Of a stretch of DNA of 64,000 nt, positions 6,287-35,493 are shown piece by piece. The translations under genes and the position numbers were made by a program. The stretch covers positions 7,739-71,738 of the forward strand of contig JAHFEG010000009.1 in NCBI GenBank assembly GCA_023248595.1. The letters run 5' to 3'. Source of the DNA: Myxococcales bacterium. Lineage in GTDB: Bacteria > Myxococcota > UBA727 > JABDBI01. The notes beneath the pieces are model-generated. The model saw nothing but the letters and a program-made list of their open reading frames with translations. It made no database searches and had not been told where the DNA came from. The first letter of the stretch is position 1; every line of letters begins with the position of its first letter.

Positions 6287-7765
6287 ATGATTTTAGAAAA
6301 TTCTGCTCTTACGAAAATCAGGCAATTTTTATGGCCCATTTATGGGGAAGAGCATAAACGCTTCTTGCCTATGATGTTGATGATTGCGTTTATCATTTTC
6401 AACTACACCGTGTTGCGTAACATCAAAGATGCCTTAATCGTTACAGAAGCTGGCGCCGAGACCATTACCTTTCTTAAGTTTTGGGCGGTTGTTCCCGCAG
6501 CTTTCATTTTTTTCCTGTTTTATTCAAAAATGACCAACATTCTGTCTTCTAAGTCAGTCTTTTATGTCATGGTTTTGCCTTTTATTGCTTTCTTTGCGAT
6601 TTTCGCCTTATTTCTTTACCCTAATCGCGAATTGCTTCACCCAACACTTTCCGCTGATTGGCTGCAAAGCATATTTCCTCCCGGCCTTGCTGGGATGGTT
6701 GCTATTTACCGTTACTGGACCTTTTCCCTGTTTTATGTGCTCGCAGAACTATGGGGAAGTGTTGTTCTTTCCTTGCTTTTTTGGCAGTTTGCTAACTCCG
6801 TAACGCCTGTTGCAGATGCTAAACGTTTTTATCCTCATCTCTATTTGCTGGGCAATGTGGCCAACATGTTGGCCGGTTACATCACTTTTTACTTCTCCAA
6901 TTTAGGCAAAACATCCAATGCCGCAGATCCTTGGCAGGTTTCTCTTAACTATTTAATGCTAATTGTGGTGTGCGTTGGTTTAGCTGCAACGGCAATCTAC
7001 TTTTACTTAAGCCAAGTTGTATTCAAAGAAGCTCCCGTATCTGCCACGGCGGCTCCTAAAAAGAAGAAACCAAAGCTTAGTATGGCAGAAAGTTTTAAAT
7101 TTTTATTTAGCTCTAAATACTTGGGACTGATTGCTGTTCTTGTGATTGCCTATGGTATTTCTATCAATCTCGTAGAGGTTTCCTGGAAGAACCGCTTAGG
7201 GATGCAATATCCTGATAAAAATGATTACAATGCTTTCATGGGCATGCTCTCTGGCACCATTGGTTTTGGAACTGCTTTGGTTATTTTGCTAGGTGGATCC
7301 ATTATTCGAAAATTCGGATGGAAAAAAGGCGCACTGGCTACTCCCTATATTTTGGGCTTTACCGGTATCGCATTTTTTGCTTGCGTCATCTTCCCGGATT
7401 TCTTTGCTCCAGTTGCGGTACTGATGGGAACAACTCCATTGATGATGGCTGTCATGTTTGGCTTCGCTCAAAATGTATTGAGCAAAAGCACCAAATACGC
7501 TCTTTTTGATCCGACCAAAGAAATGGCTTACATTCCGTTAGACGATGAATCCAAATCTAAGGGTAAGGCAGCTGTAGATGTTGTTGGTGCTCGCCTTGGC
7601 AAATCAGGCGGCTCGTTGCTTCAGCAGTTTATGTTTGCTTTCATTGGTCCAATTGGCGTCATCATGCCTTATTCTGCAGCCATCGTTGTCATCATTGTGG
7701 GTGTCTGGATTGTTGCAGTTTATGCACTCAGCAAGCGTTACACCGCGTTGAGTGGTGATAAATAA
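6287..7765 (+). CDS. tlcA: ATP/ADP translocase (Tlc/Npt1 nucleotide transporter)
   Basis: About 12 TM segments; FNYTVLRNIKD, FYVLAELWG, KYALFDPTKEMAYIPLD, KGKAAVDVVGARLGKSGG motifs. Confidence 0.96.
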   Translation: MILENSALTKIRQFLWPIYGEEHKRFLPMMLMIAFIIFNYTVLRNIKDALIVTEAGAETITFLKFWAVVPAAFIFFLFYSKMTNILSSKSVFYVMVLPFIAFFAIFALFLYPNRELLHPTLSADWLQSIFPPGLAGMVAIYRYWTFSLFYVLAELWGSVVLSLLFWQFANSVTPVADAKRFYPHLYLLGNVANMLAGYITFYFSNLGKTSNAADPWQVSLNYLMLIVVCVGLAATAIYFYLSQVVFKEAPVSATAAPKKKKPKLSMAESFKFLFSSKYLGLIAVLVIAYGISINLVEVSWKNRLGMQYPDKNDYNAFMGMLSGTIGFGTALVILLGGSIIRKFGWKKGALATPYILGFTGIAFFACVIFPDFFAPVAVLMGTTPLMMAVMFGFAQNVLSKSTKYALFDPTKEMAYIPLDDESKSKGKAAVDVVGARLGKSGGSLLQQFMFAFIGPIGVIMPYSAAIVVIIVGVWIVAVYALSKRYTALSGDK

Positions 7766-15249: not shown

Positions 15250-16020
15250 TTAAGCCCTATCGATGGGAAAATCGGTAAAGCGCTGCAGCTCTCTGTCGAT
15301 AATGGCCATGAGCTTTTCACCGGCAATATTCGCTGGTTCTCTCATAATGATGTATTCGATGAGATCACCATCTAAAAGCGGGCGATTATCGAGACCGTTT
15401 AAGAGTGGAAATTGGGCACGCCACTGATCTTTGTTGAATCCGTATAAATGCTTGGCATAAACAATTTTTGATTTGTCCTCCCTGGCGGGGATTCCATTTA
15501 GAAATGGATATTTCATGCGCAACAAATGGGCTTCACTGGGAACCACTTTTGGCTCGGGTAACGGCTCGGGTCTAATTTGTGCCTTTAATTCTTTGTATGT
15601 TTGTTGCCAATTGCTAAACGGTGAGATTGGATAGGAAGAAGGTTGCTCTTGTTTGTCATGCCAGCGCAGGCTGGCATCCAGATTGTCGACGCCGGGAAGA
15701 CTGCCCTCTCCTAATTTTTCCAAGGAAAAATTTTCCTCTCCCGCTAGCGCAGGCGAGGCATTTTTAAAAATATATTTCTTGTAGCGTTTATCGAACAACC
15801 CAACATGCTGAATCAGCCCTGCTTCTTCGAGCGCTTTCACGGCACGACGCAAGGTGCTGTCACAAATTCCAAGCAGCTTACTCAGCTCTTTGGGTTTAAC
15901 CACAAATTCACCAACTGCACCTTTGGGTAAAAGAGAAAGTTCAGCCCAAACAATGCGAGCACGTGGCGATAAATGAAAGTTACGAATAATTTCAACAGGA
16001 ATACAAACCTTGTTTTCCAT
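15250..16020 (-). CDS. Winged-helix (Rep/HTH_36-like N-terminus) protein of unknown function, copy 1
   Basis: LSPRARIVWAEL...KELSKLLGICDSTLRRAVKALEEAGLI HTH; close paralog at 34669 differing mostly at synonymous sites. Confidence 0.75.
   Translation of the reverse strand: MENKVCIPVEIIRNFHLSPRARIVWAELSLLPKGAVGEFVVKPKELSKLLGICDSTLRRAVKALEEAGLIQHVGLFDKRYKKYIFKNASPALAGEENFSLEKLGEGSLPGVDNLDASLRWHDKQEQPSSYPISPFSNWQQTYKELKAQIRPEPLPEPKVVPSEAHLLRMKYPFLNGIPAREDKSKIVYAKHLYGFNKDQWRAQFPLLNGLDNRPLLDGDLIEYIIMREPANIAGEKLMAIIDRELQRFTDFPIDRA
15654..15760. repeat. In-frame palindromic elements (RPE/WPE-like plus CCTCTCCCG-type REP)
   Basis: tgtcatgccagcgcaggctggcatccag (15654-15681, encodes LDASLRWHD) and cctctcccgctagcgcaggcgagg (encodes SPALAGE). 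Confidence 0.7.
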
Positions 16021-16235
16021 AAACAATCCTTCCGCTCAGGAGCAAACCTGAACTTGACAAGGTCAGTCGAAGATTTTATGGATTCTTCCGACTGACATAA
16101 ACGGTCTGCCGCGCCTCAAGCTTTAGTAGGATTGGGCGCGGTACTTTAATTGACCGCACACCATGCGCGATCAATTCGAGTATTTAGAATCTAAATTAGA
16201 TGTGAATTTAAATGCAAATTGTTTTTGAAAATAAT
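16021..16235 (-). promoter_or_regulatory. Sigma70 promoter plus structured four-hairpin 5' leader, copy 1
   Basis: ATTATTTTCAAA, TTGCAT (16217-12), 18 nt, TAGATT (16193-88); hairpins colinear with 34465-34668. Confidence 0.65.
16089..16150 (+). ncRNA. Putative cis-antisense RNA to the copy-1 leader
   Basis: TTGACA at 16054-59, weak -10 TATGGA, terminator-like CCGCGCC..GGCGCGG-tacttt. Confidence 0.35.
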
Positions 16236-16936: not shown

Positions 16937-17006
16937 GTCATAGATGGACTATTTAAGAACACCGCTTTGTTTACCCATCAGGATCAAAAAATATACGAGG
17001 CTTGAT

Positions 17007-17468
17007 GTGCATAAACCGCTGCTTCATGGATTTTTTCTTGTGTCATTTCTATTATTTGCTTGTCCAATGATGGCGCTTACAGAAGAAGAAAAAGCGTTCA
17101 TAGAATATGCAAAAGCAGGTAACCTAGATGGAGTTCAAGGGGCTGTCGCTAATGGCATTAATATAAATGCGCAAAACGAAGACGGGCAAACCGCTCTTCA
17201 TTGGGCTGCTTGGAAAAGCCATGAAAAAATTGTTGATTATTTACTTCTTCGCAATGCAGATACAACGATTCAAAGTCATAAAGGACATGATGCGGCTTTT
17301 CTCTGCGAAAATAAAAAAATCAAACAGATGTTGAACAATGCGAGCTGGCGAATTAACTCAAGAAGAATTGTCTCTTCTTTGCCGCCAACAAGCGTTGGCC
17401 TTGTATCTGCATTCTCATTCTTGATCACGTTCTTTTACGATAGCCTCGCTGCTGTATCCAAACAGTAA
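17007..17468 (+). CDS. Ankyrin-repeat protein with signal peptide and C-terminal hydrophobic segment
   Basis: GININAQNEDGQTALHWAAW...IVDYLL; start uncertain (16944 or 17007). Confidence 0.8.
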   Translation: MHKPLLHGFFLVSFLLFACPMMALTEEEKAFIEYAKAGNLDGVQGAVANGININAQNEDGQTALHWAAWKSHEKIVDYLLLRNADTTIQSHKGHDAAFLCENKKIKQMLNNASWRINSRRIVSSLPPTSVGLVSAFSFLITFFYDSLAAVSKQ

Positions 17469-24617: not shown

Positions 24618-25013
24618 TTAAAGCAAAGTAAAATTAGCCAAAGATTTTGTTGCCTGGTCGAAAGAAAACGTCGTTTTACAACCGGCCAGTTCGTTTTTCA
24701 TACCAATCAGAACGTCTGCAAAATCAGCCTTACGATCTTTAAAATCTTTCACGGCGCGCAAGGCAACCGCTTTATCTTCAAAAGCAAAGTGTTTCGTGTA
24801 AAGAATTTTCTCCATCACATCAATAATATCTGTTTTTTGCAATTTGTATGCGCGCGACAAAACCCACCAAGTTTCACACAAGACAATATGATTAATATAA
24901 AGCGGCTGCTCGTCACGGCATGCTTTCTCAATGCGGACATTGGCAATTTTGCTTTGTGCCGGATCATCTTGCACGATGAAGCGAATCAATACATTCGTAT
25001 CAAGCCCAATCAT
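24618..25013 (-). CDS. vapC: VapC/PIN-domain toxin
   Basis: MIGLDTNVLIR, VLCE, ADFAD, TFSFD; start overlaps antitoxin stop. Confidence 0.93.
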   Translation of the reverse strand: MIGLDTNVLIRFIVQDDPAQSKIANVRIEKACRDEQPLYINHIVLCETWWVLSRAYKLQKTDIIDVMEKILYTKHFAFEDKAVALRAVKDFKDRKADFADVLIGMKNELAGCKTTFSFDQATKSLANFTLL

Positions 25014-25258
25014 CGTTTTGCCCCAGTAGCACCCTTCACAATGGCATCTTCCATGTCTTTTATGCTCACGGCCTTCGAAATTTTAGACTTCAAAATACCT
25101 TTTAATTGCATCACATTAATTGTTGCTGCATGAATGGTGACAGTTCCATTTTTTTCCACCACATAGTCTATCTGGTCACCAGGATAGAGATGCAAATAGT
25201 CTCTGATCTCTTTCGGTATGGTAACCTGACCTTTACTGGTAAGTGTAGCGCTTGCCAT
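25010..25258 (-). CDS. vapB: AbrB/MazE/SpoVT-type antitoxin (VapB)
   Basis: ATLTSKGQVTIPKEIRDYL. Confidence 0.92.
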   Translation of the reverse strand: MASATLTSKGQVTIPKEIRDYLHLYPGDQIDYVVEKNGTVTIHAATINVMQLKGILKSKISKAVSIKDMEDAIVKGATGAKR

Positions 25259-25465: not shown

Positions 25466-26332
25466 TTATAATATCAATGGCTGAATCTCTTTCTGAAGCG
25501 CGGCAATTGCTGTTCGAATCAAAGTGTTTTTCTCAGAATCGCCGAGTATTTTGCGATACGCGTGCATGATGGTCGTATGATCCCGTCGTCCAAAATGCTT
25601 ACCAATCTCGCTAAAGCTCATACAAAGATGCTTGCGAACCAAATAAATCGCAATCTGTCTCGGCAATGAAATTGCTTGTGTCCGCAAAGCTGATTTGAGA
25701 TCTTCGCTTTGCATTCCAAAATGCAGCGCAACAGCATGTTTGATAATATTGACGGGGGCCTGTCTTATAAGAGTTTGAGTGGCAGGAGCATGATTCTGGA
25801 AATGGGCATCGAGTTTGTCGAACCTCTGTTTGAACATGTTCTCCAAAGACTCAAGCCTTGGTGATAAATCAGGCTGGAAGTTTTTTTGTTCGTTTCGAAG
25901 CTGAACGAAAATTCTCATGATTTCGATGTTGACCTGAATAGCTCGCTGACTATGGAGCACAGAGGAAAGCATCGCGACTCCAAGCTCAGTAAAAGCCATG
26001 GGTGTGTAACGACTTCCGCCATGCCCGCCCGACTCGCGTTCTACATTTGAGGTGCCAATTTGTGACCTCAAAAATGGCCTGGCGTCTACCTCATAAAAGT
26101 TTTCCACACTTGAGGTCACAATTTGTGACCTCAAGATTTCAAGCTCGTGCTTTGTTGGCTCGAACATGAAATCTTCCGGGAATCGTTCAATATTTCTTTT
26201 AACCGCTTGCTTTAAAACCTTTGTTTCAACCTCGTAAATCTCTGCCAAGTCGCGGTCCAACATGACCTGACTTACTCGTAGCGTGTAGATTCGTTTGCTG
26301 ACTTCGCTTGTTGCTATTTCTTTTTTTGCCAT
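25466..26332 (-). CDS. ORF6N-domain protein fused to a C-terminal DnaA domain IV-like HTH
   Basis: VMLDRDLAEIYEVETKVLKQAVKRNIERFPEDFMF, PMAFTELGVAMLSSVL (ORF6N); LPRQIAIYL...SFSEIGKHFGRRDHTTIMHA (DnaA_C). Confidence 0.88.
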   Translation of the reverse strand: MAKKEIATSEVSKRIYTLRVSQVMLDRDLAEIYEVETKVLKQAVKRNIERFPEDFMFEPTKHELEILRSQIVTSSVENFYEVDARPFLRSQIGTSNVERESGGHGGSRYTPMAFTELGVAMLSSVLHSQRAIQVNIEIMRIFVQLRNEQKNFQPDLSPRLESLENMFKQRFDKLDAHFQNHAPATQTLIRQAPVNIIKHAVALHFGMQSEDLKSALRTQAISLPRQIAIYLVRKHLCMSFSEIGKHFGRRDHTTIMHAYRKILGDSEKNTLIRTAIAALQKEIQPLIL

Positions 26333-26518
26333 GATGCTCTCCATTTGGAGAACCGCTTCATTTGACAACCTGAGGTCTGTGCCATACTTGAGGCACAGAC
26401 CTTAACTGGTTGCCGTTCGCGCTACTTTTTCTAGGGGAAGCGCGCGCGGCTCTTATGTTTTAGGCATGCAAAATCGCATGCATGCATCAGCCTAAATCAA
26501 GCGCTCAGAAAAAAGCAA
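26333..26518 (-). promoter_or_regulatory. Sigma70 promoter plus structured leader with the architecture of 16021-16235 and 34465-34668
   Basis: TTGCTT (26518-13), 18 nt, TAGGCT (26494-89); GCCG..CGGC hairpin 26412-50; AGGTCTGTGCC/GGCACAGACCT hairpin; TTGTCAA; SD-sequestering TTCTCC/GGAGAG stem. Confidence 0.55.
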
Positions 26519-26523
26519 TCCGT

Positions 26524-26952
26524 CTATCTTGGTTTGTTTTTTAACAAGGCCTCAACAGTGAGGACATCGTTTAAATCTTTTTCTCTGGCCATTTTGCGTT
26601 TGTAGTACAAAACGTGTTCGAGTGACTCAAAGGGCAAGCCGTCAATCATTTCTGCTGCGGCAATTCGTTCAGCAATCGAAGGTGCATCTTGAAAATTTTC
26701 CTCTAAATTAAAAGATCCTTCTCGAAATGCTTCAATGTTCTCGCCAGCAAATACAATTTTATCGACAGCGTCGGTAACAGTGACGCCATATTTTTCTGCA
26801 AGTTCGTCCCAAAGTTTTTGGGTTACAATGATATCGATGTCGCCTATTTCTCTTAAACCACGAATTCCTAAAGGACCACTACCCGTGATGGCATATTGAT
26901 CCACGGGGAGGTTGTACTTCTTTAAAGCTTCAAATTTTGCTGAGTTGTGCAT
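26524..26952 (-). CDS. Hypothetical protein, nucleotidyltransferase-like (Pol-beta GS..DxD)
   Basis: ITGSGPLGIRGLREIGDIDIIV; REKDLND C-terminal helix. Confidence 0.6.
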   Translation of the reverse strand: MHNSAKFEALKKYNLPVDQYAITGSGPLGIRGLREIGDIDIIVTQKLWDELAEKYGVTVTDAVDKIVFAGENIEAFREGSFNLEENFQDAPSIAERIAAAEMIDGLPFESLEHVLYYKRKMAREKDLNDVLTVEALLKNKPR

Positions 26953-34464: not shown

Positions 34465-34668
34465 ATTATTTTCAAATTTTAATTGCTTTCAATTTGGTTT
34501 TTAATTTATGGTCTTCTTACTGCTTTGATTCACATGGTGTGCATCAAAAAAAGTACCGCGCCCTAATCTGACAAAAGTTGAGGCGCGGCAGATTCACCTA
34601 AGAACCGGGGCGAAAATTAGCACTCCGGTTCTTGTTGTCAAGCTTTGTCGAAAAAGCTTGGAGTGTTT
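34465..34668 (+). promoter_or_regulatory. Sigma70 promoter plus structured four-hairpin leader, copy 2
   Basis: ATTATTTTCAAA, TTGCTT (34483-88), 18 nt, TATGGT (34507-12); hairpins covary with copy 1. Confidence 0.65.
34545..34607 (-). ncRNA. Putative cis-antisense RNA to the copy-2 leader
   Basis: Minus-strand TTGACA (34641-36), 16 nt, TGc-TAATTT; terminator CCGCGCC..GGCGCGG-tac-T7. Confidence 0.45.
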
Positions 34669-35493
34669 ATGGAAAACAAAGTTTGTATCCCCCTCGATAT
34701 TATTCGCAACTTTAATTTGTCGCCACGGGCTCGTATTGTTTGGGCAGAGCTTTCTTTGTTGCCCAAAGGTGCTGTTGGCGAGTTCGTCGTTAAAATAAAA
34801 GAGCTAAGTCAACTTTTGGGAATTTGTGACAGTACCTTGCGTCGTGCTGTGAAAGCGCTCGAAGAAGCGGGGCTGATCCAGTGTGTTGGGCTTTTTGAAA
34901 AACGCCACAAGGAATATGTGTTTAAAAACGCCGAGGAAGTGCTGATGGATTGTCATTCCGGACTCGTTCCGGAATCCATCCCAAGCACTGAAAACCTGGA
35001 TGCCAGCCTGCGCTGGCATGACAAAGAAGAAACGCCAATTCCCAGCGTCGACAGCCTGGATGCCAGCCTGCGCTGGCATGACAAACAAGAGCAGCCTTCT
35101 TCCCATCCAATTACGCCGTTTAGTAATTGGCAACAAACATACAAAGAATTAAAAGCACAAATGAAACCCGAGCCCACACCAAAGCCAGAACAAAAAGTGG
35201 ACCTAAGTGAAACTGATTTGCTGCGCATGAAATATCGATTTGCCAATGGAAAACCCTGCAGTGATGACAAACCCAAACTTGCTTACGCCCAGCAGTTGTA
35301 CAACTTTTATCAAAATCAATGGCGTGCTCAATTTCCACTTTTAAACGGTCTCGATAACCGTCCGCTTTTAGATGCTGGTCTCATCGAATATATTATCATG
35401 AACGAACCAGCAAATATTGCCGGTGAAAAAATGATGGACATCGTCGATAAAGAGCTACAACGCTTTACCGACTTTCCTGTCGACAGGGCTTAA
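34669..35493 (+). CDS. Winged-helix protein of unknown function, copy 2
   Basis: GGAG SD; highly similar to 15250-16020 except in the central linker. Confidence 0.75.
   Translation: MENKVCIPLDIIRNFNLSPRARIVWAELSLLPKGAVGEFVVKIKELSQLLGICDSTLRRAVKALEEAGLIQCVGLFEKRHKEYVFKNAEEVLMDCHSGLVPESIPSTENLDASLRWHDKEETPIPSVDSLDASLRWHDKQEQPSSHPITPFSNWQQTYKELKAQMKPEPTPKPEQKVDLSETDLLRMKYRFANGKPCSDDKPKLAYAQQLYNFYQNQWRAQFPLLNGLDNRPLLDAGLIEYIIMNEPANIAGEKMMDIVDKELQRFTDFPVDRA
34951..35085. repeat. In-frame RPE/WPE-like palindromes; 31-bp unit repeated at 60-bp period
   Basis: tgtcattccggactcgttccggaatcca (34951-78); cctggatgccagcctgcgctggcatgacaaa at 34995 and 35055. Confidence 0.8.

Follow-up and report, generated by a model that had tools for sequence, protein, structure and literature searches.

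In plasmid R1 (CopA/CopT) and in the IncB/IncI-alpha systems (Inc RNA), the rep leader itself gives rise to an antisense RNA, and the stem-loop that this RNA targets is located far ahead of the start codon. The Shine-Dalgarno (SD) sequence of these systems is held in a hairpin, and sequence variation in the loop sets specificity and thereby incompatibility. The antirepressor genes of phages P22 (sar/ant) and P1 (c4/ant) have a small antisense RNA that arises within their leader, and the two promoters converge. In pMV158, the small cis-antisense RNA RNAII starts with 17 single-stranded nt, continues into one hairpin with a bulge and ends in a U-rich stretch, and it lowers translation of the replication-initiator gene repB (PMC4485353).

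Here, we analyzed a 64,000-nt stretch of DNA (the window) from a Myxococcales bacterium whose genome comprises 1.99 Mb in 61 contigs. Positions 26333-26518 on the minus strand (the target) hold the putative promoter and the 5' leader of an ORF6N+DnaA_C gene, in the order promoter, H1, A-tract, H2, H3, GTCAA, H4 with the SD, and ATG (Table 1). An earlier note on this DNA had listed these elements and had called the region a third copy of an antisense-type leader that also precedes two wHTH genes of the window. Direct reading of the minus strand found every one of the listed elements in its place. On the opposite strand, TTGACA at 26362-67 is followed after 15 nt by CATACT, as had been noted, and TACTTG after 17 nt also fits. 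The target has the same order of elements as the two wHTH leaders and little primary identity to them, and the scores of two covariance models described below (R2 and R3) back the view that all three are of the same leader type. The target is indeed a further copy, but the count of three was too low, since the genome holds 23 such leaders.

The 211-nt region folds with -77.4 kcal/mol compared with -56.6 +/- 4.2 kcal/mol in shuffles (z -4.94), and none of 200 shuffled sequences was as stable. The 64-kb window has just 8 perfect hairpins whose stem reaches 9 bp or more, and H3 is one of them. The loop of H2 contains AGAAAAAG. On the plus (antisense) strand, H2 forms a continuous hairpin of -20.7 kcal/mol, a putative terminator and recognition hairpin for the antisense RNA, and in the mRNA it forms an interrupted hairpin of -16.9 kcal/mol. 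Visual inspection also showed the promoter pattern T(T/G)GC(T/A)T-N17/18-TAGnnT in wHTH leaders from this genome and from relatives, and an nhmmer alignment pairs the promoter stretch of the target exactly with the wHTH leader profile. By eye, H1 of the target is like H1 of the small-wHTH leaders of one relative (G009), which is centered on CATGGTG; models R2 and R3 exclude H1. When the leader was compared with its own genome by blastn, no copy was found beyond a 34-nt match at the ORF6N paralogue. A search against Rfam 15 returned only tRNAs above threshold in the window, and the leader belongs to no Rfam 15 family. With permissive thresholds, the only matches were sub-threshold ones to sok and mir-275, which we rejected; the match to RF01794 (sok antitoxin), which spans the entire leader in sense orientation, reached 17.1 bits, compared with a gathering score of 59.

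Table 1. Positions, strands and key features of the target leader, the predicted antisense RNA and the regulated gene (window coordinates).
Feature	Position	Strand	Details
Putative sense promoter	26489..26518	(-)	TTGCTT 26518-26513, 18-nt spacer, TAGGCT 26494-26489; read directly
H1, 5'-proximal mRNA hairpin	26464..26481	(-)	GCATGCG-ATTT-TGCATGC; seen in folds
A-rich tract	26462-26451	(-)	read directly
U-rich tail 3' of antisense H2, putative antisense 3' end	26451..26464	(+)	TCTTATGTTTTAGG; read directly
H2	26412..26450	sense (-), antisense (+)	outer GCCG/CGGC, internal CG/AA loop, inner CGCGCT/AGCGCG
Predicted antisense RNA, ~65 nt	26395..26461	(+)	~17-nt 5' tail, H2 hairpin, U-rich tail; inferred from promoter and terminator positions
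H3, mRNA hairpin	26373..26402	(-)	perfect 11-bp stem, 8-nt loop
Putative antisense promoter	26362..26390	(+)	TTGACA 26362-26367; TACTTG 26385-26390 (17-nt spacer) or CATACT 26383-26388 (15-nt)
TTGTCAA	26368-26362	(-)	complement gives plus-strand TTGACA 26362-26367
H4, sequesters SD	26337..26352	(-)	TTCTCC(aaat)GGAGAG; seen in folds
Start codon ATG	26332-26330	(-)	read directly
Regulated gene, 288 aa	25466..26332	(-)	ORF6N 7.3e-32 + Bac_DnaA_C 7.3e-26 (Pfam); DnaA C-terminal helix-turn-helix

The predicted RNA resembles RNAII of pMV158 in its layout, with ~17 nt of 5' tail followed by a single hairpin (H2) and a U-rich end, and in facing a gene with a replication-initiator-like DNA-binding domain. 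The differences are that RNAII was experimentally shown whereas the RNA here is predicted, that the hairpin here is longer (~39 nt), that the predicted footprint ends ~50 nt before the SD, and that no CopG-like co-repressor was seen. Unlike the pMV158 system, the cassettes described here are chromosomal, reach 27 per genome and have no sequence similarity to plasmids. With CopA/CopT and the Inc RNAs, the target shares an antisense RNA (predicted here) from within the leader, an upstream target stem-loop and an SD held in a hairpin; unlike in those systems, neither a leader peptide nor an activator pseudoknot is demonstrated, the setting is non-plasmid, and no origin was identified. A plasmid replication-control region would be marked by a location on a plasmid or at an origin and by a bona fide Rep gene, and neither was found for the target. 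As in sar and c4, a small antisense RNA (predicted here) would arise within the leader between convergent promoters, and the ORF6N domain of the downstream gene matches a PHROG annotated as anti-repressor. Unlike in sar and c4, the target does not lie in a prophage setting, pattern scans of viral contigs produced 0 real matches, and most members of the family precede wHTH genes rather than antirepressors.

The 288-aa protein matches anti-repressor and replication-initiation PHROGs, and its homologues begin at the same ATG. The matches of the wHTH and ORF6N+DnaA_C proteins to replication-initiator PHROGs are weak (1e-4 to 1e-8), and so are those to anti-repressor families. Upstream of the leader lie a 142-aa ORF (26524-26952) and then a tRNA-Thr gene. 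The only match of the 142-aa ORF is a PHROG of unknown function, and in a genome of the same genus (G001, locus L060) this ORF is cut to about its last 30 nt and the leader is retained. Directly downstream of the ORF6N gene we observed a VapBC-like pair (24618-25258) that consists of a MazE/AbrB-type antitoxin and a PIN toxin. In addition, the ORF6N coding region contains an 11-bp perfect inverted repeat (26109-26135) and a degenerate second copy (~26045-26075), and both repeats encode a recurring LRSQI.TS peptide. The leader copies are chromosomal and lie among housekeeping genes. The window also carries genes for a TLC ATP/ADP transporter and an ankyrin-repeat protein (6287-7765 and 16944-17468), which suggests an intracellular lifestyle for the bearer of this 2-Mb genome.

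The two wHTH leaders of the window lie upstream of paralogous HTH_36 genes at 15250-16026 (minus strand) and 34645-35493 (plus strand), which are 72% identical and belong to a gene family with 39 tblastn matches in the genome. By profile, the genome contains 21 complete or near-complete wHTH leaders (21 nhmmer hits with E<=1.1e-35). An alignment of 20 of these leaders (A1) shows the invariant blocks AAGTACCGCGC, GCGCGGCA and GTCAAG. Four sequence versions of H3 exist, each of which still pairs, and compensatory changes are found at nine pairs. The earlier note had expected the target to be recognized by a covariance model trained on the two wHTH leaders, and in its narrow form this expectation failed. 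The model that we built from the 20 wHTH leaders of this genome (R1; effective sequence number 2.27) found all wHTH leaders (21 hits) but scored the target at background, with 11.2 bits and an E-value of 0.75 in the window with filters off; a hit in a coding region outscored it with 16.1 bits, and the target was absent from the whole-genome search at E<=10. We judged this score not to be decisive because a model with such a low effective sequence number is too narrow. An nhmmer profile that included the promoter returned the target with an E-value of 0.019 as the best non-family hit of the genome, and the aligned parts were the promoter and H2. By themselves, the R1 and nhmmer outcomes range from marginal to negative.

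Several further observations were made on the HTH_36 genes. Gene and leader together form a repeat unit of ~1.03 kb that runs exactly from the sense -35 to the stop codon. The copies of this unit are 72-93% identical and dispersed, many of them at contig ends and one between purM and purN on the opposite strand, and some adjoin tRNA genes. Neither a transposase nor terminal repeats were seen in the repeat unit. One wHTH copy (G000:C6:10435-10485) has no leader, and the 3' end of an rve-type, IS-like integrase lies directly upstream of it. Three partial leaders (G000:C18:7206-7288, C31:5802-5885 and C2:37101-37169) consist of the promoter and the 5' half of H1 only, fused to unrelated sequence. 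The wHTH frame at 34645-35493 and further ones in this genome and in relatives (loci L164, L176, L178, L209, L212 and others) carry short in-frame inserts with recurring peptides, which have the appearance of palindromic repeats that entered the genes.

Homologues of the ORF6N+DnaA_C gene were found in G001, G009, G016 and G018, and a broken paralogue lies on contig C48 of the target's own genome; every such homologue has a target-like leader. In an alignment of 11 ORF6N-type leaders, little or no variation is seen in the outer stem of H2, in TTGTCAA and in H4, and the inner stem of H2 and H3 covary. One H3 G-C pair has become G.U in the G001 ortholog. By eye, a mini-frame of 8 codons from ATG to stop lies 5' of H2 in five of the 11 leaders (L059, L061, L062, L066 and L068), where it encodes similar peptides; the target has no such frame. 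A reciprocal covariance model was built from these 11 leaders alone (R2). When R2 was run on the 2-Mb genome, the two ORF6N-type leaders came out on top, and wHTH leaders made up 14 of the 15 best non-self hits (25.8-13.7 bits, E-values of 1.2e-3 to 2.2). The remaining hit (C36:12977-13114) is an ordinary terminator-like hairpin, unrelated to the family, and was discarded. With filters off, R2 hit all 20 wHTH leaders at full length and on the correct strand. Within the taxonomic family, R2 hits occur in 7 of 21 genomes.

A broader model (R3) was built from an alignment (A6) of 41 wHTH-gene leaders fitted to the structure of R2, none of them of the ORF6N subtype, plus one probably spurious row. 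A6 was guided by the model because RNAalifold on a MAFFT alignment of 41 mixed leaders (A5) had recovered only H2; A5 missed H3 since H3 is offset by one column between subfamilies. R3 scored the target at 65.7 bits (E-values of 1.4e-14 genome-wide and 4.6e-16 within the window), which places it third among the 23 family hits of the genome, and the best unrelated hit in the genome reached 20.2 bits, with the training alignment itself fitted to R2's structure. Across the 42 leaders of A6, 92.1% of the cells are paired compared with 75.0% in shuffles, and none of 500 shuffles reached the observed values. Furthermore, compensatory changes on both sides were found in 22 of 23 pairs, and slid controls were only 30-49% paired; the copies are paralogues and not independent.

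At E<=1e-4, R3 gave 108 hits in 8 of the 38 genomes of the order. All eight belong to the window's own family, in which they make up 8 of 21 genomes with this one included, and carry 1-27 copies each; the 17 genomes of other families in the order gave 0 hits. In viral contigs, pattern 1 produced 45 matches, none of which scored with R3 at E<=1, and the ORF6N-type pattern produced 0 matches. In metagenome contigs, 0 of 80 loci among the loose-pattern matches listed reached R3 E<=0.01, a result that is uninformative on distribution. PLSDB contained no match for the leader (blastn) or the wHTH protein (tblastn). Taken together, the leaders of the homologues with their covarying H2 and H3, the reciprocal hits of R2 and the R3 score show that the target is a true member of a lineage-specific, multi-copy leader family. 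That the leader belongs to a structured 5' UTR family with clear covariation is well supported even if the antisense RNA should be absent. A title-level look through the literature on ORF6N and antisense RNA, on countertranscript control of initiators and on reduced-genome Myxococcota endosymbionts found no description of it.

To see which genes follow the leader, we examined 72 further R2 hits (16 + 20 + 36). A downstream ORF of at least 80 aa was present in 46 cases, of which 40 matched an HTH family and 36 matched HTH_36; the six ORFs without an HTH match are short or degenerate, and the hits without an ORF are truncated or at contig ends. A separate scan found HTH_36 in 8/8 ORFs. No gene class other than the wHTH type followed the 72 further hits, and the leader family normally precedes replication-initiator-like wHTH genes. 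The genes listed downstream of the model hits are DNA-binding genes, chiefly HTH_36. The proposal that the cassette is portable between different DNA-binding genes was borne out by leaders of the ORF6N subtype that precede HTH_36 genes in G009 and G018 (R2 scores of 124.8 bits at G009:C1, 117 bits at G018:C29 and 100.9 bits at G018:C24, where the HTH_36 gene is truncated). Because the same leader subtype stands before both ORF6N and HTH_36 genes, the leader has been swapped between unrelated gene families, and these results show that the cassette moves between gene families.

Judging from the arrangement of signals on its opposite strand, the cassette probably carries its own cis-antisense RNA of ~65 nt. 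A look for sequencing runs that contain this DNA turned up 8, all of them DNA runs. The putative antisense -10 falls in the loop and 3' arm of H3, and the predicted antisense start falls in the 5' arm of H3. GTCAA, the complement of the putative -35 hexamer, is the one motif kept across all subfamilies. The exception is G001, where six wHTH leaders (L167, L174, L224, L227, L232 and L237) have GTAAA instead, whose complement TTTAC is still -35-like. Of 98 distinct leaders, 88 carry TTGAC or TTTAC on the antisense strand with a TA 16-18 nt further on (17 nt in 60 cases), and the target fits with TTGACA-17-TACTTG. Elsewhere between 10 and 25 nt (13 spacings), TA occurs 15 times in total and at most 5 times at any one. 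On the sense strand, the 10 nt preceding H2 contain five or more A in 66 of 72 leaders, and these give a U-rich tail after the hairpin on the antisense strand. In addition, H2 is stabler on the antisense strand in all 11 ORF6N-type leaders (mean of -20.6 vs -15.4 kcal/mol) and in 13 of 20 wHTH leaders, and a fixed sense C.A in H2, which corresponds to an antisense G.U, occurs in 11/11 ORF6N-type leaders. The loop of H2 is the most variable segment (column identity of 0.59 vs 0.99 in stems), and 20/20 loops are distinct. Such variability would be expected if the loop sets the specificity of each pair, and relaxed constraint would look alike.

It is also conceivable, though rather unlikely in our view, that the leader is a sense-only 5' UTR regulator without a functional antisense RNA, in which H1-H4 act in the mRNA, for example through stability, SD masking by H4 or recognition by a protein or small ligand. 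In that case, the TTGAC-N17-TA pattern would have arisen as a side effect of constraints acting on the H3 loop and its flank. The covariation of H3 and H4 is consistent with this reading, as are the wobbles in both hairpins, which favor the sense strand (15 G.U vs 4 A.C in H3; 7 G.U vs 0 A.C cells in H4, which is kept in 11/11 ORF6N-type leaders). H4 also masks the SD in all 11 of these leaders whether or not the antisense footprint is blocked. Moreover, a simple consensus scan of 26200-26700 on both strands flagged no promoter, sense or antisense, and no terminator, and the same scan of the two wHTH leaders found no promoter or terminator for an antisense unit; the terminator rule demands a loop of 3-8 nt, and loops of 15-23 nt, as in H2, are unusual for intrinsic terminators. 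Just 38 of the 88 candidate antisense -10 hexamers end in T, and the target's own -10 (TACTTG or CATACT) is weak. What a sense-only regulator does not account for is the better pairing of H2 on the antisense strand in every ORF6N-type leader, with its fixed C.A mismatch on the sense strand, the A-run that precedes H2 throughout most of the family, and the fact that the sole motif invariant in all subfamilies is a -35 complement with TA at promoter spacing. The lack of any Rfam family at threshold counts against it as well.

Alternatively, the leader could act as DNA, its palindromes serving the encoded wHTH or DnaA_C proteins or a host factor as operators, iteron-like sites or recombination sites, or marking the end of a mobile module; we regard this as improbable. 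All of the downstream genes encode DNA-binding proteins that are similar to replication initiators or anti-repressors, the repeat unit runs exactly from the start of the leader to the stop codon, and the modules are dispersed, some of them beside tRNA genes, all of which would suit such an element. The folding energy of H3, which shows no strand preference, would suit it too. However, leader subtype is uncoupled from gene family, and one H3 variant was seen by eye with different wHTH N-termini, which argues against a protein-specific operator. The asymmetries between G.U and A.C wobbles point to selection on RNA and not on duplex DNA, and the identity of only 72-93% among the copies is unlike that of a recently active transposon.

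A mere chance likeness, in which an ordinary intergenic spacer combines the terminator of the upstream 142-aa ORF with an unrelated promoter, would fit the background score with R1 and the blastn search that found only the 34-nt paralogue match, but it is highly improbable, since the R2 and R3 searches already weigh strongly against it (65.7 bits for the target vs 20.2 bits for the best unrelated hit with R3), the leader is conserved and covarying upstream of homologues in 4 other genomes, G001 keeps it with the 142-aa ORF almost wholly gone, and none of the hairpins of the region has a U-run after it in the sense direction.

The best explanation, to which we assign a probability of roughly 0.6, is that the leader is a family control cassette from whose opposite strand a cis-antisense RNA of ~65 nt lowers the level of the downstream DNA-binding protein. 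In this mechanism, the complement of GTCAA would serve as the antisense -35 and the H3 loop would provide the -10; the RNA would start in the 5' arm of H3 and end at the H2 hairpin and its U-rich tail. The convergent putative sense and antisense promoters lie ~130 bp apart. By pairing with the H2-to-H3 part of the mRNA, the antisense RNA would reduce the amount of protein made. In the wHTH leaders, the loop and 3' arm of H3 are complementary to the SD region, and antisense pairing may free the 3' arm to pair with the SD. When the antisense footprint was blocked in silico, the predicted accessibility of the SD went down in 8 of 18 wHTH leaders and up in 1. For the ORF6N-type leaders, H4 covers the SD with or without the block, the simulated accessibility changes in only 2 of 11, and the predicted footprint stops well short of the SD. 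Because H4 already masks the SD in this leader type, duplex-triggered decay or interference by convergent transcription would be the more likely route there. The variable top of H2 and the spacer could provide each copy with a private antisense/target pair.

A more far-reaching version of this idea, which we put forward as speculative, is that the cassette is a plug-in module that gives each of up to ~27 paralogous replication-initiator-like or antirepressor-like genes per small genome a private antisense RNA through the hypervariable H2 top and spacer. This would be a chromosomal analogue of plasmid incompatibility groups, in which selfish or domesticated genes might be throttled individually, or only one or a few of them expressed, and recombination at the start codon might carry the module onto unrelated genes.

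Should the antisense RNA prove real, the leaders would represent an undescribed RNA family with 108 copies in 8 genomes, none of them in Rfam. Plasmid-style countertranscript control would then have been reused as a movable cassette on chromosomal DNA-binding genes, and this in a host lineage of uncultured, small-genome bacteria that carry an ATP/ADP transporter. The many naturally diverged antisense/target pairs within one cell would lend themselves to the study of orthogonality in RNA-RNA specificity. A further question posed by the family is why dozens of replication-initiator-like genes persist in a reduced genome.
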